Source: Paramecium tetraurelia
Taxonomy: Eukaryota
Direction of reading: 5' to 3'
DNA: 31,039 nt
Assembly (NCBI GenBank): GCA_000165425.1
Contig: CT867988.1
Coordinates: 279,370 to 310,408, forward strand
Each line of letters begins with the position of its first letter. Positions within the stretch are counted from its first letter, which is position 1. Below the pieces are notes generated by a model. That model was not told where the DNA came from. It saw only the letters and a list, made by a program, of their open reading frames with translations, and made no database searches. Of the stretch, positions 20 through 30,184 are shown piece by piece. Both the position numbers and the translations under genes were made by a program.

Positions 20-1507
20 TCAATAAAAAGTGGTTTCATTTTTAAAATACGTAAAGTGTTAAAGTAATTTAGTTTAATTATAATTTTGTTTTTTTGGAAT
101 CCCATTAGAATAAATCTAGCATTTCAACTTTCTATACTTTGAAGGGAATTCAATAGACTAAATATTAGAACATAACTCACTCTTCCGTTGATGCCCTTAT
201 GAATCAAAGTTTTTAACCAATTTCATATATGCATTATATAATCGAGATACAGAAGAAGTGAATGTTTATCCACGAAACTAAATAGTGCTTTTGGAAAAGT
301 AGACTACTTTTTTAGTAGCCATCCTTTCCAACTGTTTTAAATCTTTCATTAAACAATGAACAATCACTATCTAAACTATTAAAGAGAATATAAAAAAGGT
401 TCCCAATATTTGTAACCAGGAATCAATTAATTGATTTTGAAACCCAATCTATTTATTATAAATGTCTTATTGCTATTTCAGATATTGACTTTCATCATAA
501 ACTACGAATAAAAAATAATTTAATTTAGTCAGTATTGTTCTCAAGACTATGATATTTTTCTAATAAACGCTATTGTACAAGTAAAAAATATCTTTACCCT
601 CTTTTATTAAGTTATTCCAGTCAGTTTCATTAAATCCTGTTAAACTTTAGTCGTACATTTTTATTAAAACTTTTACTCCATTAGCATAAAGATCACTGAT
701 AACAATATTGCCACTGCTATCCACTAAATAATATTATGAAGTATTGGTTTGAATCTTGGGCATTCTTGTAAAATCTAAGTCTTGTCCTATCAACCCTTCG
801 AATTGTTTATGAGTTAAATTTGTCGTCTATGAAATGAAAACTACATCTATCCATGAAACATACGGATCGCTAACTATTATTTACTTGCCTGTTCCCATCT
901 GAGCTATATGATCTCTATACCATTACCTAGTATGAGGGTAATAGTTTGAGAGTGCATATCCTTTGTTTTATGAAAAAAATTATTCCTCTCCGACATGAGC
1001 CATCAAAGTTAATAATTAAAGGTCATAAATTCTTAAGGTTTCTGTTAATAAAGATGTTAATTTCAGTATGTTCTAATATTTACTAATATTTAAGCCATTT
1101 GTCAAATTGCAAAAAGCATAGCAAAAAGAAAAAAGGTATGCATATGAATCATTGAATTATTAATTATTTAAGCAATCATAAGGCATTTCAATCTGGAAAT
1201 CCTTATCGATTATCTAATATAACTAATTAATAGATAAAAGCTATCTTGTACTATCCTAAAAAACGTCAAGAGTTGAAGATTTTTCAAGGTAACTCAACAT
1301 ATTCAAATGATTCTGAGTTTCTTTCTAAAATATTTCTTAAGTAATAGCCATTAACTACTCTGTAACAATGTACATATAGATTAAATTGCTAACTAAAAAA
1401 ATTATCACACTTAAAAGTGTAATAATTAAGTGGAAACAACAAATCTAGTTGCTAATCCTCCAATTTCTACATAAAAAGTTTCGATAAATCTATTTTTTCT
1501 ATATCAT
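20..1507 (-). CDS. Two-TM membrane protein with extracellular dCache-like sensor domain and HAMP-like juxtamembrane segment (495 aa, intronless)
   Basis: Code-6 frame open from ATG 1507 to TGA 20-22 (1488 nt). TM1 is ICCFHLIITLLSVIIFLVSNLIYMYIV. Cache-like motifs are NYYPHTRQWY..SDPYVSW..GLIGQDLDF..YLVDSSGNIV. TM2 is WLQILGTFFIFSLIVQIVIVHCL. Confidence 0.85.
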
Positions 1508-2415: not shown

Positions 2416-3804
<1,389 letters not shown>

Positions 3805-3914
3805 GAATTGATTATAAATATTTAACTATAATTTACTTATCTCTACAGACCTTAATAGTATTTCTAATAGAATTTGAATTGCTTAATTTGTAATCAATAA
3901 TTAATACATAATAA

Positions 3915-5250
3915 TCAAATTTATAATTAATATAACTCAATAAACAGATTTTTGTCACATTTACAAATGTATTTGGTGTTTGCCTCCTGTAATGCTACGT
4001 ATATTGGATTGACTAATTTATTATAGAATTATTACATAAATGTTCATTGTCTGTGTTTGTAAACAAACAAATCCAGAGCTTATTTGTCATCTTAAAATTG
4101 AATAATTGTTATAAGATCTTTAATAAATTTTGCCTAGATAAATCTACAATATGAACTAATGTATTTTAAGCAATCTTATCTCTTAATTCATCAGCTAAAT
4201 AATCAAATATCAAAACAGGTTATTAAGGATTATAAATTTATTTACTGAATATTTATTTAATTTTTTATACTTAAGGGTGATTTACATCTTAGATTTCCCA
4301 TTTCTCTGTTATTAGAATATGTTAGTTAATCATGTCCTAAACTTCATAAGGGGATATTTAAATCAACTCTAATAAGGGCTGTTTTTCCTATTCCAAAAAT
4401 ATTGGTTTGGCATGGTGATTAAATAGATTTAAGGAGTCCAAGTAAATCCAAAATTGTTTTGGCGTATATGTATGAATTTTTATTGCAATTCTAATAATAT
4501 CATAATAGATTTTTTCGTCATCCAAAAATATCTTACACATAAAATATGGTAAATTGTCTCCTTTATTGTTTAAAATTTCTTGTTTTTTATATATTACTAT
4601 TGCGATGTTAAAACTAAAAATGAAATATCTATCATTTATCAGAATTGTGTTTTCTATTATCATTTAAGCTATTGGAAAGGAAGCCTTATTAATGCCTAAA
4701 GTAATAAACCATGGTATGGCATATAATTAAGGGGATATGTCATGTAAAGTTAGTCTATTGTACAGTTCCATATCATGATATTTCAATAATAAATTGTAAA
4801 CTGATAAAATTGATTAGATTCCTGAATAATCATCATCAAAAAAATTAGTCATATATCTTCTAATAAATTCATTGAACATAGAATAGACAACCGATACATC
4901 TAAACCTGCTTTGATAAATATTATAAATGGGGCTGCTATTTCATGCAATCCTTATTTGTAAGTTATATGATTTGAAACCACATAATATGTAAGTAGCTAT
5001 TCAAGTTGAGTTTTCAGATTTTAATCAAGCAAGTTTCCTCTAGTCCTTATAACATCAAATCTGATAATATTTTATTATACTTTATTACTCTTTAATTTTA
5101 TTAATTCAATTAAACACTTTAGATAGGATGATTAATCTTTAAATCAATGTCCATCAATTGAGGCCACATTAGAGCTCTAGTATAAAGGAAATTGGCCTTT
5201 GATATTATTTCAGAATTAGTCTTTTTAGAATTATCACTTTGAGATCTCAT
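3915..5250 (-). CDS. TBC-domain Rab GTPase-activating protein (~428 aa, 2 introns of 26 and 23 nt)
   Basis: IRFDVIRT (IxxDxxR arginine finger), YKQGLHEIAAPF (YxQ glutamine finger) and YAIPWFITL. Spliced length of 1287 nt is a multiple of 3. Contains the track ORF 4388..4663. Confidence 0.85.
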
Positions 5251-9941: not shown

Positions 9942-11450
<1,509 letters not shown>

Positions 11451-11468
11451 TTTATTAATAAATTTAAT

Positions 11469-12500
11469 ATGTTAAACAATTTAATAACTATAATAGCAGA
11501 ATGCTAAATCAACTCAGAATAGATTAAACAACTGTTCGTTGATCCTCATTTGGCATTCCAAATGTTATCCTCCAATGGGCATGATATCGATCAATCCGAG
11601 ATCAAGCGATTCATATCTCTGAATGACGAGGAAATCAAACATCAAATCATTTAATTCAATTCAAATTCTGAAGCAAATTTAAATATGTTGAGTATCCTTA
11701 ATTTTACTAAGCAGTTTCTTAATTTTTTGAAGCTGAATAACAACCACATGTCAGAGAAGTCCTTATCAAACTCTTGCAATAGGAGGCTATTAATTTTAAG
11801 CAAATTCTTTGTGTTTTCCATAGAATATAGTAAAATTTAAATACTCAAAGAAGACAGCAGTTACAATCCCACTGAATTATTTAATTAGATTGATTAGTTT
11901 GGCAAAGGCTACATACACACAGAACATTAAAAAAATGCACAAATTTATCTAACTACTACATCTCAGCTTTCTTTAGATTTCTTGACAGAGATAATGATGG
12001 GAGAATTTCAGAAACCGATTTTTTATCAGTCTTAAAATCCTCACGGAAATAACCATTTGGAGTATAATACAAAGATTTGAGATAAAGTCAAGAAAAAGAA
12101 AAATAAATAATCTAATAATGTTAGTAGATCTAATTAAATATATAAATGAGTGAGGAGAAAAATAGCAACAAATAATTAAATAAGTCTAACAACTATTATG
12201 GAGTTGATAAAACCTCGATCGCTCTAAAGCATAAAACTCATATTCCTCCCTACTTAAGGTAAGATAACAATTACTCAAAATCGACTATATCAGAAGAAAT
12301 TCTCATCGGGAGACTTTTGAAAGACTTCTCAAATATCAACATCAATTTAATAAAAATATCAAAGAGAAAAACGAAGAAACTACACAAAAATATAAGAATC
12401 TTAATAGTCTTCACAATTAAGTATATACTATGAGAACATACCAAGATTTAAGTCTTAAGAGGTGAAGAGAGCATAGTATTCATAGCTAATCTTAATTATG
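11469..12500 (+). pseudogene. EF-hand protein, frameshifted (pseudogene or sequence error)
   Basis: Frame from ATG 11469 gives ELFNQIDQFGKGYIHTE. The canonical EF-hand FFRFLDRDNDGRISETDFLSVL is in a different frame after an A-run at ~11930, and the 3' end shows another apparent shift and TGAs. Confidence 0.6.
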
Positions 12501-17377: not shown

Positions 17378-18298
17378 TCAAATAACTTGGTCTAATCTAC
17401 TGAGAACACCGCAAGTGTTTCCGATAGCAAGCCAAATGTGCCCATTGACTCCCCAATCTGATCCCCAAGAATTTCTGATTAACCAGTTTTTCTTGGAATC
17501 ATATCCAACAGCTACAGCTGCATGATTAGTTGAGGTGTTAATGCAGTTTGAAAAGATACCTCCGGTATACCCTTTCCAATTAGAGGATTGGACACTAACA
17601 GATATTGGATATTAAGCGATTGCCTCATAAGCTTAGGTTGCTGTAGTCCATGTTTTTCTTGAGTTTGCTTTGGTTGATCCTTAGGTCTTTCTACATTTTT
17701 CCTTACTTGCAACATATGGGTATTCAGATTCCAAAAAAGCACCATTTTTATTTAAATAATCGATAGCTTTTGCTGGATAGCCCCCATCACATCCATGTGA
17801 ATTAGTATCACAATCAACTAAATTTTATTCAGAATATTAGAAGTGTGTTCCCTTAACAAAGATGAAAAAGGCTTCAAAAGCACCAACGGCTGAGAATGAC
17901 CAGCCTGATCCACATGTACCTTAATTCTTGACTGGATTCATTTTAGATGACCAATCAACAGATTCAGGAAGATTAATTGAATCAATAGATTCATCAATCT
18001 CAATAGGAGAAGAATCGGCTCTACCAAGGTAAATCTATTCAAATTCTTCATCTGTAAGAGTAGCGAACTGATTTATTCCTAGTGTGTAGCTGGACTGCCT
18101 ACTATTTACTTCTTGATAGTAGTTGTAGTTTTATTTGAAGATTTCAAATCTGTATTCATCTTCAAATTAGCTGGTGTATCTAGTTTAATATTTTTGTTTC
18201 CATTCTTAATATAGTCTTCTTAAGGGATCTTCTTAGCCTAAGTAGCTTGTTGTTGCAAAGAGAACAGTTGTGATAAGTGCAATCAATGGCTTATACAT
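17378..18298 (-). CDS. Cathepsin L-like papain-family (C1A) preproprotein with catalytic Cys replaced by Gly (306 aa, intronless)
   Basis: Signal peptide, I29 prodomain (EDEYRFEIFKQN, GINQFATLTDEEF), LPESVDW, QGTCGSGWSFSA, SEQNLVDC, GCDGG, NHA and IRNSWGSDWG. Confidence 0.95.
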
Positions 18299-19216
18299 TA
18301 AATTAATTTACAAAATATCTTCCGATTTTTTGAGATTTTAAACATAAAATCTACTATGTATTAAATATGTTGAAAATTTGCAATCAATTCTACATTATGG
18401 AATGGTGAAAATTTGATAGTAAGCATTATTCAATTATAAGGAATTATGGATTTTCAGAAGAATAATATCATTTATCTCAACTGAGAAATTTATTGTAATA
18501 TAGTTAAAGTTTTTTTAATTTGATTATGTAATTCAATAGTCATTTAGAGTTAGAATTCCAATAGGAGAAGACTTTTTTTATTTTATATTATTAATAGAAT
18601 TAGACAATGCTTATAAATAGAAAAGGATGTATTGTAGCCAAACGAGGGTTATTTTGAATTTGAATATCATTAGCTTCTAAAATGGAAAATATCTAATTTT
18701 AATAATTTAATTAACTACTCATTTTTATTATAATTCTTCCAATTAAATATTCTTAATTAAATATTCTTTTATATTTTTAATTTTTACAAGCATCAGTAGG
18801 TAATTTAGTAGTTTTAGCATTTACTTATGTGATTTCAAAATAATGATTTGAATTTTATATTTCAATATTATAATTTGTATGAATTCACTCTACATAGATA
18901 TTTGCTCGAGAATACCATTTTTTATATACATTACTGAGTTTTTTATATTAATTTGCGGTGTTAAAAAAAGACATATTTATGTAAACTGAATGTTTATGAT
19001 GGTATGTCAAAAGGATTCGAAATACCTAAAAATATACTTCAATTAATCATATAAAATTATTAACATTGAATGACGAATATTATAAAAGATATTTATAATG
19101 TACTCATAAAAATAAATTGCAGAAAAAAGTAAAGCTACTTTTTAAGTTAAAGCTGGAAATGCTATTATTAATGAAATACAAGACATCTGTGTATATGATT
19201 AATTAATTTAATTTTT

Positions 19217-20903
19217 ATGAAATCATATTATGATTACTCTAATGTTTTATTCGAATGCATCATGGTTCGCAAACATTTCATTAGCGATGTGAAATATTAT
19301 TGCTATGTTCTAAGTGATTACCTGCTTATGAGTAGGGTAAGATATGCAATTTATGTAAGAAAGCAAAGGATCCCGCTCCAAAATATGTTTTACCATTATA
19401 GTTGACAAATTAAGTCGGATGGGTTGTGGAGCGAAAAGATAAGAAAATTCAGTTTAAAGCTTTCACGATGAAGTATATGGAGAAATACAAAGACTTTGTG
19501 GGAAACAGCAACGACTTGTAGAAGTAATAAAAATAAAATTAAGTAGACTGAAGGAACATCTCAGAAATAAGGTTACATTCTACAAGATTGCTGATTTCTA
19601 CGAAGCATAGTACAATTTAGGGAAGGGGAGTTCAGCAAAGGTTATCCAAATAAAAGAGTTAGGAAATGAATAATCGAAATTGGCAGCAAAAGCGATAGAT
19701 AAAAGTTACCTTTAGAAGAGTGAGTCTGGCATGTAAGCCTTTTTAAATGAGGTCAACATCTTGAGCCATCTTAGTAAGTAAAATTATTGTGCTCCCTTTA
19801 TCAAATTGCACGAAACATATGAAGGGGATCACACATTCTATCTCATTTTGGATTTGATGCAGGGCAGAACTCTTGCAGATGAATTGGATATCTTAAAGGT
19901 AAAAGAATAACAAACTATTAGCAAAGAAAGGAGATGTTTCCTATGAAATTAGTCAAAGTTATTATGAAACAATTGCTATAAGGTGTTAAGATACTTCACG
20001 ATAATAATATAATTCACAGAGATTTGAAGCCGGATAACATCATGTTTCGAGAATTAGATTCCTATGAAACTCTCACCATCGTAGATTTCGGATTATCGAC
20101 CTTCACTGATGTTACTAAATATTAATTTCCAAAATGTGGTACTCCTGGATATGTGGCACCTGAGATTTTGAATTTGGTTGATAGAGATTCGAAATATGAT
20201 AAAGTCTGTGATATCTTTAGTTGCGGTTGTATCTTTTATAAGTTACTATTTGGCCATAGTTTGTTTATGGGTAATACTTTCAATGAAGTATTGGGACAAA
20301 ACAAGAAGTGTAATTACACTCTTGATGGACCTGAAATGACTTCTATTCCTTTTGAAGCCTAAGAGCTACTCAAGAGGATGCTGGCAAAGAACCCTTCTGA
20401 AAGAATAACAACTCATTAGGCTTTGGAATCTGACTTTTTTAACAAACCCTCATCTCCTCTGCAATCAAAAAGTATATTACTATATTTAATTAGAACTCAA
20501 AGCATTTAATGTACCTAATATCAGTAGTAGGAATATTTTCCAACCTACATTAGATGGATTATTATCTGAAGCTGAATCTCCATTTTAGAGAATAGGTTAG
20601 AAATGTAAAAATTAATTCGATTTTGATGTTGACATTTAAGAAAATAAATGTTCTTCAATTTAAATTAGATAATTACCATCTGTGAAAAAGCCCACTTGTG
20701 TAAGATTGGAGGATTCGACAATTGGTAGTTTCTATGCAAAAGATCCATTAAGTAGTTTCAAGAAACTCAAAGGAAGTATGTGAATATGTCTATCATAAGC
20801 ATCTCAAAAACAATTGAATGAGACTAAAGAAATCAAGGTTAATCAATTCGATGTTGATTAAATGCAAAGAATCTCATTATTTAACAGAAATGAAGATTAT
20901 TGA
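19217..20903 (+). CDS. CAMK-group Ser/Thr protein kinase with N-terminal PH-like region (~523 aa, 5 introns of 22-24 nt)
   Basis: LGKGSSAKV, AAKAI, IIHRDLKPDNIMF, IVDFGLS, KCGTPGYVAPEIL and CDIFSCG. Spliced length is 1572 nt. Confidence 0.92.
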
Positions 20904-25770: not shown

Positions 25771-26560
25771 ATGGACCCAGAGGCTCAAATGGATCTCAAG
25801 ACTGAGACACCAGTGATTAGAGGAAATGATGATTTATCTGTGTATCTGCAGACCATCTACCACCTAAACTTAAATGATTTCAAGGAATCACTTTATCAAA
25901 TGAAATTACTATTGATTAATCAAAGATAAGCGTAATTTGATTTAAAATATTCACAGATTCTAGGCCCTATAATGGAATTATGGTAATATGTAATAATACA
26001 TACATTAGAAATATAACTGAAATAGCCCAACAATATTTCATTTCTATTACTAATTGTAATTCTGTAGTTGTTAGTCGTATTTATTTATTCTATATTATAC
26101 TTAAAACATGCTTTTATTATTGCAATATTAAAACATCTAATAATTAATAGTTTTTATGGATATTCGATAGTTATTTTGTTAAAGAGATTTATACCTGACC
26201 AACACTTTCATTTAATATTTGTTGTTGAAGCATTCCTGTATTCACTATTTTTATTCACAATTTACAACTATTTATGTTTAGTAACAACTTTAATTAATCA
26301 ATAGTTTATAGTCAACTTACTAATTGTCAGCCCATTAGAAGTAAATAACATGCTAAACCTATTTGCAAATTACTAATTTTATTACACTATTTTTAAACAA
26401 ATTTCAAGTAAGAACTACTGAAAGTATACTAATAGGTATCAATAAAATGAAGCAGCCTGAATATTTGTTAATTCCGATTGGATTTTAAGTGATAGTCTTT
26501 TTTGGACTCTGTCTGATACGTATTGATTATTTCAATATTCTGGTTGACATATTGTTATGA
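25771..26560 (+). CDS. Divergent UNC-50/Gmh1 family multi-pass membrane protein (~236 aa, introns of 25, 26 and 28 nt)
   Basis: YLQTIYHLNLNDFKESLYQMKLLLINQRQAF resembles UNC-50 YLRRLF..QMDFEFA.WQM.YL..P..VY. It is followed by about five hydrophobic segments and a C-terminal NxL..YY..F....LLxP pattern. Confidence 0.6.
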
Positions 26561-26844
26561 TATAAATATATTTATTTAATGATGCATTTTATAATTAGAA
26601 TTGATTTCATGCATCCATAATAATAAATGTCTCACTAAAATTGTTATAATTTAATCAATTTGTAACTAAAATATGTTATTTCTCAGTAGTAATTAAATTT
26701 ATTAATTGATACTTACCTCATTTACTAATTATTTTTTAACTTGTTGAATCAATTATATTATATAATAAATAAATGTGATATCAATAATAAGTATGAATCA
26801 AAATTAATATTATTTTGTTTAATATTCAAAATAAAATACTAATA

Positions 26845-28521
26845 ATGGAAAAAATAGAAAATGGTAAAGGTTTAACCAACTTTAGTTCTTTATTTTGTCT
26901 CAAAAAATTAAAAGTAAGAACCCAAGTTTTGATAATTCAAGTGATAATTCAATTTTTAATAGGAACTTTATTAACATTGATAAGTTACTTAGCTTATTAG
27001 TACATTATAGACATGTACTCAAATATCTCCCTGGAATTCTATGTTCTTTAATATTATAAAAAAACAGATATGATTACTAATTTATAAGTAAGAAGTTCTC
27101 AAGAAGTATTATTCAGAAGTTAAACTCATCTATTAAAGTCTGATTTCTTATATCAATTCATCTAAAGTGTAGAATTGTAATACATACAACAGCCATTGAA
27201 CTGTCTCAATTATGATAATAAATTGGACAAGTATCAATATGAATAAACATTTTGCTACGGCTTTTTTGGAGACTAAGCGTATTCACTTACCAATAAAGAT
27301 TTTTTGGCACTGAATTATTCCTCCTTTTTAACCCAAGTTTTACCTATAATGGATATGGATTTGGATTTGCTATTTTCAACAGTTGGTGATTAAATGTACT
27401 TTTCTATTTGGCCTGGTGATCCCTTTCCTAATTATAAGCCTCATAGAAGAATATGGTATACAAACCATCTGAAGTAGATAGAATAATAAAATTATAATTT
27501 GACTTACTTTAGTGATCCTTATATTTTATGGACTTGGTTTCTGTTTATGGTGACTTAAACAAGGAATATGACGAATTTAAATGGAGGATTGGATGGTGTA
27601 TTTGGAAGTGACTTAAACTTTAGTCTATTTCACACTTTATCATTGAAGTAAGAGAATGTTACATTTTCTATAATTGATTCAAAAGGACAATTTCTTTTGA
27701 GTTAATTTAATATAAGTGAAGACAAGTACATTTATGATACTGATATATCAGGATATACAATGGAGGATTTTGAGCAAATTAATAATTCATTGTATTAAAA
27801 GCCATTTATTAATAATTGTTCTAAGATTGATCAATTATTGAATAATGAAAAACTTTGTAGGTATAATTCAGTAACTAAATCTGAAGAATTGATAGTAGCA
27901 AAGATCTTGTACCCAACCGATTTGATATTGCTGATGTAAGAGATTTCAAATCTTATGGTTTTAGTTAAGTGGATCTTCTTGAAAAGGAGAAGGAATTACT
28001 GAATCAACTTACTCAAATCAAAAATGATTTTGAAGATTTCTTTAGAGAGTATATCATAATTGGAATTTCAACAGCATTATTTTCAATCATTTTGAGTTCA
28101 ATTATTATATATGTGACATTGAGTCCAATCACAAATCTAATCCTATATACTAGTTAATAGATTACAAAGGAATTCGATCTTATGCAACAGTAAATCAACT
28201 AAAAGATACATCTCAAAAAAAGCAAATACTCCTTAAAGACTATACAAGAATTGCATTAGGCTTTTAGAAAGATGAATATCAAGTTGTTTAACCACAAGGA
28301 AGGCAGAAAAAACAACACATGCACAGAACTTGAATAAATTCAGTTTCCTCTGAAACCTTTAGAGACATTGCCATTTGAATCCTCCAATATTCAGGTAAAG
28401 CGTCAAAGTAAATTAGAATTACAACTTTTAGGAAGACGATTTATAAGTGTTTTATCCATTTGAATTCTTGAAACTTCATTAAAAAAGAAAAAGACATTGG
28501 TACAATTATGTTTCAATTTGA
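26845..28521 (+). CDS. Two-TM membrane protein with dCache-like sensor domain and HAMP-like segment (~530-540 aa; paralog of 20..1507)
   Basis: TM1 is VLIIQVIIQFLIGTLLTLISYLAY. Cache-like motifs are NYKPHRRIWY..FSDPYILW..GVFGSDLNF..IIDSKGQ. TM2 is YIIIGISTALFSIILSSIIIYVTL. 29-nt intron at 27936-27964. The 3' end is 28521 if a 22-nt intron is spliced, otherwise 28463. Confidence 0.85.
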
Positions 28522-28759
28522 ATAACAAATTCAGTTAAATAAATTTTGATATTCTCTTTTGTTATAAATCAATATTATAATTCAATCTTTCTTGTAGCAT
28601 CATTAACATTATTGAGACAGTTGTGAGCATTAATTTGGAATTCAAAAGATTGCACTATCTTCTTTGAACTCAGAGATTGATATCTTTATAAGATAAATAA
28701 AATATATTCTGTTTAACTATAATAAAATATATAAAATAAACAGAAATATTCAAATTTGA

Positions 28760-30184
28760 ATGAGTAAGCACAAGCATAGAAGAACCTAATCAAATTCAGA
28801 AGTCGATTTAAGAAATGCTTTATGTCAATAGGATGATAAGAAACACTTCATTGAGATATTTAATCATGTATTCTAAAATGCCATTATTATTAATAGGCTT
28901 CGCACATTCAACCTTAAATTCCAGAAAAAGAAGTTATAATTGAAAAATTAGAAGATGATTATGCGATGCAACATCTCAAAGAGAATTGTGGTTTAACATT
29001 TGGCAATTCCAAAAAAAAATCAAATTTTGGATCCTATTAACCCAACAATCTCTTTTTGATTCCTGAATAGAATGATTTGTTGTCAAGTGTTGAATAAACC
29101 TAAGAATCAGGTAAAAAGCTCACTTCAGGAATGAAATTGAATGTTAATACTTAAAAAAGATAAACCAATAGCGTTGAACAAAAAAATAATAATGATCAAA
29201 AGGAGAATTTAAAAAATGAACATAATAGATAAAATTCGACATTAATAAGTTAGATTGTAAAATCATTATTAAATTCTAGTAAGCTCAATTAAGGGATGTC
29301 ACTCATTTGATGAATAGCGATAAATTAGATTTATTCAATAAAATGAGTTTTACTAAAGAACTACAAAAGAAAACTGCAATTTTACCTGTCCAAGTTCCAT
29401 TTAGTCATTAAACCACACTGCAACCATCCTTAAATCATAATTACTCTCAACAACAACAATCTTAATCTCAACATCAATAGCCATCAACTCAACTCAATAA
29501 TAATATACTCTAATAATAAAATCCTAATATTTAACCCTAATTATTAGTGCATCAAAATTCTTTAAAAAATGTTTCTAAACATACTATAACTCCAGATAGA
29601 AAAAGAACTCCTTCAATGGCAATTAATAAACCATCAGGAATAGAAGCACCATTCCAAAAATCTGATAAATCCATTAATGAAAGTGAGAAACCAAAAAATA
29701 ATTTATCAGTCTCGATTTTTAATAATCTTTTCCAATAAAATAAGAAAATTTCTATAAGTCATATCGCAAATAAACCAGATCAATAAAATGATTCTTTTAG
29801 AAAATTGGAAACTCAAATGAAAAAAATTGAAAGAGAATTAATGTCTTTAAAATAGAGGCAAGATTAACAGGATGAAATAAATAAAACTATTTAATAATAA
29901 CTACAACAAGTAATTCATGATAGTAGAAAGCAAAGAGAAGTATGAATTTATTTATATCAAAGCAAGGTCATTTGTCTTTAAAAAAGTTGGAGTAGCTTGA
30001 AATGATCACTAGAAGAAATGAAGAATCTATTATGTACCTGAGATAAACATTGGGGGGTCATAAGAGAATGGATTCAATGACACATCAAACGTAAACTTTT
30101 TATAATTATAAAAGTGATTCTACTGAATTGAGCGATCAACATAGAAGATTTACTGATTTAAAGAGTTTGAACAGATACATTTGA
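28760..30184 (+). CDS. Hypothetical low-complexity protein with C-terminal coiled coil (~441 aa, 4 introns)
   Basis: MSKHKHRRTQSNSEVDL... with introns of 29, 23, 23 and 24 nt giving 1326 nt, ending DLKSLNRYI-TGA. Confidence 0.75.

Follow-up and report, generated by a model that had tools for sequence, protein, structure and literature searches.

The gene at positions 26845-28521 (+ strand) of the analysed window, a stretch of 31,039 nucleotides of Paramecium tetraurelia DNA, encodes a predicted transmembrane protein in which an amino acid-type dCache_1 sensor domain lies between two transmembrane (TM) helices and is followed by a HAMP-like helix pair and a short cytoplasmic tail. The gene belongs to a selected and expanded family of VWA-free dCache_1AA-HAMP proteins in this ciliate, which we refer to as short forms and which is likely of Asgard origin on the basis of sequence comparisons. 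The explanation that best accounts for the data, and which we consider about evenly poised between right and wrong, is an enzyme-free two-subunit receptor of Asgard descent, in which HAMP contacts would join many ligand-binding short subunits to a small number of long ones, which end in TPR repeats and a VWA domain.

Gene Structure and Transcripts

Translation with genetic code 6 returned a product of 541 amino acids encoded by three exons and interrupted by two short introns, all on the + strand. Exon 1 (26845..27935), which is supported by the orthologs, contains the ATG, a short basic N-terminus, the first TM helix and most of the dCache_1 ectodomain. Intron 1 (27936..27964, 29 nt, GT..AG) restores the frame in agreement with the orthologs, exon 2 (27965..28394) covers the end of the ectodomain, TM2, the HAMP-like pair and the start of the tail, intron 2 (28395..28416, 22 nt, GT..AG) yields an ortholog-type C-terminus and exon 3 (28417..28521) ends with the TGA stop. 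The preliminary description of this DNA had delimited the element as 27433..28350; the first coordinate, the start of the sensor motif, was retained, while the second had to be moved, since the stop codon is located at 28519-28521, after intron 2.

In the genomic DNA the motif and TM2 are found in different reading frames, and they occur in one protein because the 29-nt intron 1 joins the two frames. Eight GT..AG candidates could restore the frame at this place, of which 27936-27964 reproduces the ortholog sequence. The spliced product showed 504, 461, 456 and 444 identical positions out of 541 with four named Paramecium orthologs, the best being a named P. pentaurelia protein (504/541). A duplicate gene on contig C402 also encodes 541 amino acids and carries introns of 28 nt and 24 nt at both equivalent places. 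The three RNA runs, with few reads over the gene, gave no listed splice junction and the introns rest on the comparison with the orthologs and the duplicate. A P. sonneborni record of 367 amino acids (P0007) ends exactly at the position of intron 1, and its annotation probably missed the intron.

Searches of the organism's own genome were carried out on a 72-Mb assembly of 697 contigs; the window, which is AT-rich and was read with code 6, lies on its contig C5. A chimeric or bacterial contaminant origin of the gene was ruled out by the use of code 6, the short introns, the duplicate on another contig and the orthologs in other Paramecium species. The closest homologs are named proteins of the Paramecium aurelia complex; word-indexed homolog searches retrieved no more than 5 and 6 Paramecium proteins. 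One named P. tetraurelia protein matches a different locus of the genome.

Three stranded RNA runs provided 35, 49 and 29 reads over the 3 kb from 26500 to 29500. The reads on the gene span 27106-28519 in a single orientation, coverage ending at 28519 in one of the three runs, and no run has any depth at 28520-28721, ahead of the next gene. These data bear on the proposal of the preliminary description that the protein has no output domain, a proposal that splicing of the transcript into a downstream catalytic domain would contradict. Such an incomplete gene model, which would turn the protein into an ordinary Cache-HAMP-enzyme receptor, draws on the introns having no listed junction reads. 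We regard it as scarcely credible, as the RNA stops before 28520 in every run, the protein has the same end point in the C402 duplicate and in the orthologs of three further species, a Pfam scan of the two frames downstream of the gene gave no match, and 18 of the 28 paralog frames stay open across TM2 and the tail up to a stop. As read from the gene model, the protein terminates 66 residues past the HAMP-like pair, in line with the original proposal.

The Sensor Domain

The first TM helix (TM1, 26926..26994, residues 28-50) was assigned by hydropathy and precedes the dCache_1 ectodomain (27001..28043, residues about 53-390), which is split by intron 1. The YxxxxRxW..Y..D motif that had been claimed for this domain is present where it had been placed, the codon of Y197 starting at 27433. 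Its N-terminal half (27433..27456) comprises Y197, R202 and W204, matching the carboxylate-binding side of PctA, and its C-terminal half (27520..27612) comprises Y226 and D256, matching the amino-binding side. The dCache_1AA motif has been defined in a survey according to which the matching PctA residues bind the carboxyl and amino groups of the ligand (PMC8915833). W204 and Y226 are separated by 21 residues, above the 13-17 given for prokaryotic W-to-Y spacing in that survey, while the 29 residues between Y226 and D256 fall within the prokaryotic range of 27-34 (PMC8915833).

Pfam detected neither dCache nor HAMP in this protein and likewise gave nothing useful for the proteins of the window; among 30 family rows, six matched PF02743 (dCache_1) at E up to 1, the best at 1.5e-8. 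The comparison of a profile of 30 family members with the PDB returned 11 sequences with E values no higher than 10; ten are Cache proteins, with 7K5N in first place (E 4.7e-11) and PctA at E 7.8e-4. Y197, R202, W204, Y226 and D256 are in register with both 7K5N and Mlp24 in the profile alignments. An AlphaFold2 model of a 93%-identical ortholog, calculated from 90 sequences (pLDDT 83.4) and also submitted to a Foldseek search, showed the dCache_1 fold with a stalk helix and distal and proximal modules. The model superimposed on Mlp24 with a Z score of 16.8 (2.6 A, 231 residues) and on PctA with a Z score of 16.8 (3.1 A, 235 residues). Profile matches and model together support the amino-acid sensor fold put forward in the preliminary description. 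A VWA insertion is absent from the domain, the motif halves being 21 residues apart and the ortholog model containing no VWA.

Four nearly invariant cysteines (120, 137, 325 and 338) and nine N-glycosylation sequons were read from the ectodomain sequence. Since both features fit such a location, the ectodomain is predicted to lie outside the cell or in a lumen.

The HAMP-like Segment and the Tail

TM2 (28050..28118, residues 393-415) leads directly into SPITNLILYTSQ, which is followed by a connector and by TIQELHQAFRKM, exactly in the order originally described. The first helix, AS1 (28119..28172), carries the pattern P-I-x-x-L, whereas the second, AS2 (28230..28283), reads I-x-x-L-x-x-A-F-x-x-M, in register with DEIGxLxxxFNxM. 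The connector (28173..28229) exceeds that of canonical HAMPs by about 7-9 residues and is partly helical in the model, with low confidence at residues 446-453.

The Pfam HAMP family (PF00672) was absent for this protein and among the families listed for 30 family rows, the list covering 25 of 27 families. A profile of the post-TM2 segment from 44 Paramecium-like rows was compared with 23 enzyme- or MCP-linked HAMPs and matched them with a probability of 86% and a score of 25.5, with both helices in register; 100 column shuffles reached at most 9.1 and the reversed profile 9.8. When 31 windows along the family were scanned in the same manner, the post-TM2 segment gave the best score (27.2) and overlapping windows including TM2 reached 20-22. 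Pfam HAMP is detected in Asgard proteins, with which the Paramecium segment is in register. In the monomer model of the ortholog, AS1 and the connector run as one helix to residue 446, followed by a low-confidence loop and a second helix, and the listed fold matches, dominated by the ectodomain, included no solved HAMP structure. The segment after TM2 is HAMP-like, and we read it as a HAMP that has diverged and carries a lengthened connector. The TM-dCache-TM-HAMP-like layout of the preliminary description was thereby borne out, the HAMP assignment drawing on the profile comparison and on end-to-end homology to Asgard proteins with a Pfam HAMP.

The cytoplasmic tail (28284..28518, 66 amino acids), which is split by intron 2, contains no known domain and shows the motif K..C..(I/L)E...(F/Y)P. 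Among 48 Paramecium-like rows the cysteine part was found in 33 and the (F/Y)P part in 29. The number of residues after the TM2 proline is 91-177 in these 48 rows, 80-156 in 26 other eukaryote-like rows and 49-74 in 27 Asgard-type rows. Most Asgard short forms have nothing that corresponds to the tail, and it could serve a different partner. In an alternative account the protein would act outside the old partnership, as a homodimeric receptor or accessory subunit whose HAMP homodimer moves the tail, which in turn would bind an unrelated cytosolic protein, an ion channel or a cyclase; by analogy, the accessory version would work somewhat as alpha2delta and CACHD1 serve channels. Cache-HAMP receptors are in general homodimers, and the conservation of this eukaryotic addition in the Paramecium-like rows also speaks for such an arrangement. 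We judge it, in either version, to be a possible but rather unlikely account in view of the long-form genes described below.

The Short-Form Family in Paramecium

A search of the organism's own genome gave 30 matches among 35 candidates, and a query with a second paralog (28 matches among 29) added six loci, so that the family numbers at least 36 loci, a lower bound in which the six added loci were counted from the match list. A second member is located in the window itself at 20..1507 (- strand), with 495 amino acids in a single open frame and a full YRWYD motif. Some loci (L010, L017 and L019/L031; contigs C313, C413 and C402) carry short-form paralogs in tandem, and the third copy on C402, near 323439, is not matched by any in the window. 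When F is accepted in place of the first Y, 16 of 27 own-genome rows have the full motif (nine in the strict form) and the remaining 11 lack it; in four rows H replaces both Y and D. On these sequences, the paralog family is large and its pockets are varied.

Comparison with the C402 duplicate by a simple counting method gave, for this one gene pair, dN/dS values of 0.037 for the pocket, 0.045 for the HAMP, 0.25 for the tail and 0.11 overall. The gene is under purifying selection. These values argue against a non-signalling role, either as a ligand-binding surface or vacuole protein or as a decoy that would damp long-form homodimers through inactive heterodimers. Such a role would agree with the lack of an output domain, with the low expression in the three RNA runs (35, 49 and 29 reads on 3 kb) and with the altered pockets of the 11 rows without the full motif. 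However, selection on the HAMP is as strong as that on the pocket, and pockets that are varied yet conserved over at least 36 loci suit a receptor repertoire more than a single decoy, making a non-signalling role improbable.

The other genes of the window, examined by eye, include a TBC-like protein (3311-5143, -), a casein kinase 1-like gene (10501-11513, -), a papain-family protease (17378-18532, -) and a protein kinase (19332-20783, +). No link between the receptor gene and these four ordinary neighbours was seen.

Relatives and Descent

A profile search of 1.84 billion representative sequences returned 1076 matches, the best 150 of which were listed; 71 of these were scanned with Pfam, 30 were looked up by name and the grouping of many rests on sequence likeness. 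Members lacking an output domain were found in the ciliates P. bursaria, Stentor coeruleus and Blepharisma stoltei, in the chytrid Nowakowskiella, in the giant virus Yasminevirus and in a Promethearchaeota protein. The eukaryotic family suggested in the preliminary description was borne out. Viral scans gave five weak dCache matches, and none for the giant-virus protein. Asgard short forms matched the Paramecium family end to end (99.4% over 431 columns) with the HAMP in register. Only nine of 27 Asgard short forms carry the full motif, R being replaced by E or D in many, so the ancestral ligand need not have been an amino acid. Output-less dCache-HAMP proteins occur in bacteria too. One apparently bacterial protein of this kind (L126:6974-8515), encoded behind a MinD/ParA-like gene, has a different coiled-coil tail and represents a separate type.

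In a tree of 74 rows (LG+G4), 28 eukaryotic and viral short forms grouped with a support of 97 inside the Asgard short forms (98 and 99), and short and long forms together were separated from the enzyme-bearing receptors with a support of 100; the eukaryotic and viral group also stood apart from the long forms. A tree of 34 rows under a mixture model returned the same nesting (95, 97 and 95), the eukaryotic group joining, at 94, four short forms, one of which comes from a Heimdallarchaeota record. Both trees are quick searches with SH-aLRT supports only, and their outgroup was drawn only from the best 150 of the 1076 profile matches. The Paramecium stems are long, the Paramecium composition is skewed and the bacterial output-less dCache-HAMP proteins were left out; because of this last point, vertical descent is favoured but not proven.

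The Short-Long Gene Pair in Asgard Archaea

A GTDB scan with an archaeal-type short form alone as query identified 11 loci, one in Heimdallarchaeota, four in Thorarchaeota, one in Promethearchaeota and five in other archaea. At ten of them a gene ending in a VWA domain lies directly upstream on the same strand, and the eleventh starts at a contig edge. Pfam analysis of three upstream genes showed dCache_1, TPR and VWA, with a weak HAMP in one. In a sample of 301 genomes of that archaeal phylum, 109 matched the long-form profile, two candidates being scored per genome. Among the short-form matches listed for this sample, 38 of 43 lie at most 400 bases downstream of a long form, and three of the five exceptions start less than 180 bases from a contig edge. 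All 20 archaeal loci that were fetched show the long gene followed by the short one, most of them having been chosen from known adjacent pairs. From this archaeal gene order, TM-Cache-TM-HAMP-TPR-VWA proteins may be the partner in trans that the preliminary description had postulated.

Linked short-long pairs outside Asgard-type contigs were absent among 85 viral and metagenome loci, the two relevant contigs being too short for such a pair to be recognised. The metagenome scan, in which 80 of 427 loci were kept, added one more pair of Asgard type, besides a long form and a short form that each stand alone on a short contig. A long form of 1136 amino acids (dCache ... VWA) was observed on a short metagenome contig (L128:104-3511).

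The archaeal pair is often flanked by a gene for a PLP-dependent ornithine/arginine decarboxylase (L037:5949-7805, L036, L038, L040-L042 and several of L069-L088), identified by Pfam in one case and by likeness in the others. Together with the E or D that replaces the motif R in many archaeal pockets, this gene hints at amine or polyamine ligands in the archaea. A protein combining a beta-propeller with a zinc ribbon is encoded beside the pair at L036:1595-3034, L035:4231-5373 and L043:1572-2759, one of them with a weak PCI match, and is a candidate cytosolic effector. In some archaeal short forms the HAMP is followed by HEAT repeats and a further zinc ribbon (L073:296-2287, by Pfam; L075:4210-5958; L076:2700-4652).

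Long-Form Genes in Paramecium

A long-form query of the Paramecium genome identified a homolog on contig C30, and two different HAMP-TPR queries then gave the identical set of eight loci, which by inspection form four clades. Three of four own-genome VWA matches were dropped as VIT-VWA proteins. All eight long forms match the archaeal profile in the VWA part and seven of them also in the HAMP-TPR part; among these seven, two of the part matches are weak (0.02-0.04). The ortholog of the C30 gene in P. sonneborni, compared with a profile free of Paramecium rows, matched over 806 columns with 99.7%. In its model (pLDDT 64.9) the VWA domain gave Z values of up to 23.6, and the nearest match of the TPR stack was LGN/Pins (Z 21.3, 4.1 A, 275 residues); both domains of the Paramecium long form were also confirmed by Pfam. 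The Cache fold of the ectodomain is of low confidence in this model, and VWA and TPR took up the matches listed in the fold searches. The first VWA metal-site motif is degenerate in seven of the eight proteins, and the pocket motif is absent from both Paramecium long forms that were aligned. A protein atlas search with the cytoplasmic part of the long form gave no usable match.

The window contains no long-form gene, all eight loci lying elsewhere and unlinked to short genes. That no long gene precedes the short gene here is as expected, because the host is a eukaryote. The lack of linkage nevertheless counts against the pairing and, with short genes more than four times as numerous as long ones, can also be taken in favour of a short-form homodimer acting through its own tail. 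Against such a homodimer, the two gene types persist together both in the Asgard operons and in the Paramecium genome, and the aligned long form carries no ligand motif of its own, which leaves it with no obvious input unless it is partnered. A complex prediction between the TM2-HAMP-tail part of a short-form ortholog (P0004, 385-541) and the long TM2-HAMP-TPR-VWA part (P0167, 415-1001) scored 0.01 in two runs; as it was calculated with no alignments, on one of the four long clades and with an uncertain partner fold, it is evidence neither for nor against the pairing.

Proposed Mechanism

In the two-subunit receptor that we favour, the distal pocket would take up an amino acid, either extracellularly or within the lumen of an organelle, and TM2 would relay the movement to the HAMP. 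The HAMP bundle would be a heterodimer of a short and a long subunit, and the second HAMP helix of the latter is predicted to run straight into the TPR repeats and the VWA domain. The TPR-VWA part would change its binding partners, and this altered binding would itself be the output. In Paramecium the short genes, at least 36 in number, would supply the range of ligands and the eight long genes a common signalling end, a division of labour suggested by the full motif in 16 of 27 own-genome short rows and its absence from the two long forms aligned. The likely use would be chemosensing of food-derived amino acids.

A broader version holds that the ciliate repertoire consists of enzyme-free Cache-HAMP heterodimers inherited vertically from Asgard archaea near Heimdallarchaeota, with dozens of tuning subunits for amino acids or similar compounds served by a few TPR-VWA signalling subunits, that it forms a distinct class and that it contains the Paramecium amino-acid receptor. 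We put this forward tentatively, as a suggestion with a sizeable chance of being correct but on balance somewhat doubtful. Glutamate and other metabolites of bacteria attract Paramecium, and how an occupied receptor acts on the ion channels is not known according to a 2022 review (PMC8964087). The same review reports that a thesis holds an NMDA-like candidate for the Paramecium glutamate receptor (PMC8964087), which counts against the favoured explanation. The present analysis now supplies candidate receptors by name and limits the candidate signalling subunits to four clades. Silencing by feeding and swimming assays are routine in Paramecium.

Comparison with Known Systems

The bacterial dCache_1AA receptors PctA/B/C, Mlp24, Mlp37, CtaA and Tlp3 share with the Paramecium protein the fold, the five motif residues and the TM-dCache-TM-HAMP order. 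The Paramecium protein differs from them in the lack of an MCP, kinase, cyclase or phosphatase domain, in a longer ectodomain with conserved cysteine pairs, in a longer HAMP connector and in the added tail. Having no MCPsignal or kinase domain, it is not a member of the methyl-accepting chemoreceptors or sensor kinases, although its input side would be expected to work like theirs.

Among eukaryotic proteins, alpha2delta-1 (Z 15.3) and CACHD1 (Z 14.5) are structural matches and are likewise dCache_1 proteins with the amino-acid motif. Unlike these and the protist single-dCache VWA proteins, the Paramecium protein has a single dCache with no inserted VWA, together with two TM helices and a HAMP-like pair on the cytoplasmic side. 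The VWA of the proposed long partner is C-terminal and cytoplasmic, whereas the alpha2delta-type VWA sits inside the sensor. Fungal Sln1-type and Naegleria Cache proteins, as described in an earlier survey (PMC4822843), are all eukaryotic TM-Cache-TM receptors; they carry a histidine kinase or adenylate cyclase, in contrast with the enzyme-free Paramecium family, which groups with the Asgard proteins.

The closest likeness is to the Asgard pair of dCache-HAMP and dCache-HAMP-TPR-VWA proteins, with end-to-end homology of both short and long forms and with the eukaryotic short forms nested among the Asgard ones. The two systems differ in that the archaeal genes form one operon, while the at least 36 short and eight long genes of Paramecium are unlinked; moreover, the Paramecium short form has added a tail and the aligned long form has lost the pocket motif.

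According to the two surveys, all eukaryotic dCache_1 proteins found carry the VWA insertion (PMC8915833) and eukaryotic Cache domains are ascribed to transfer from bacteria (PMC4822843). A VWA-free, HAMP-linked family that groups with Asgard proteins departs from both statements. The eukaryote table of the first survey has no row for Paramecium, Tetrahymena or Stentor and five ciliate rows, all of Litonotus, and its supplements include a single motif-bearing Asgard genome and no chytrid (PMC8915833). Searches of an open-access library yielded no paper on the short-form family or on the Asgard short-long pair. If the pairing is true, a membrane signalling system would have been carried from archaea into eukaryotes with protein docking as its output instead of an enzyme, and it would represent a new class of eukaryotic receptor, set apart from GPCRs, channels and kinases.

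Finally, three relatives of about 950-1000 amino acids (P0071, from the chytrid Chytriomyces, P0079 and P0131) were observed to carry two TM-dCache-TM-helix units in one chain. These proteins possibly represent a fused pair, an arrangement that would favour heterodimer function.
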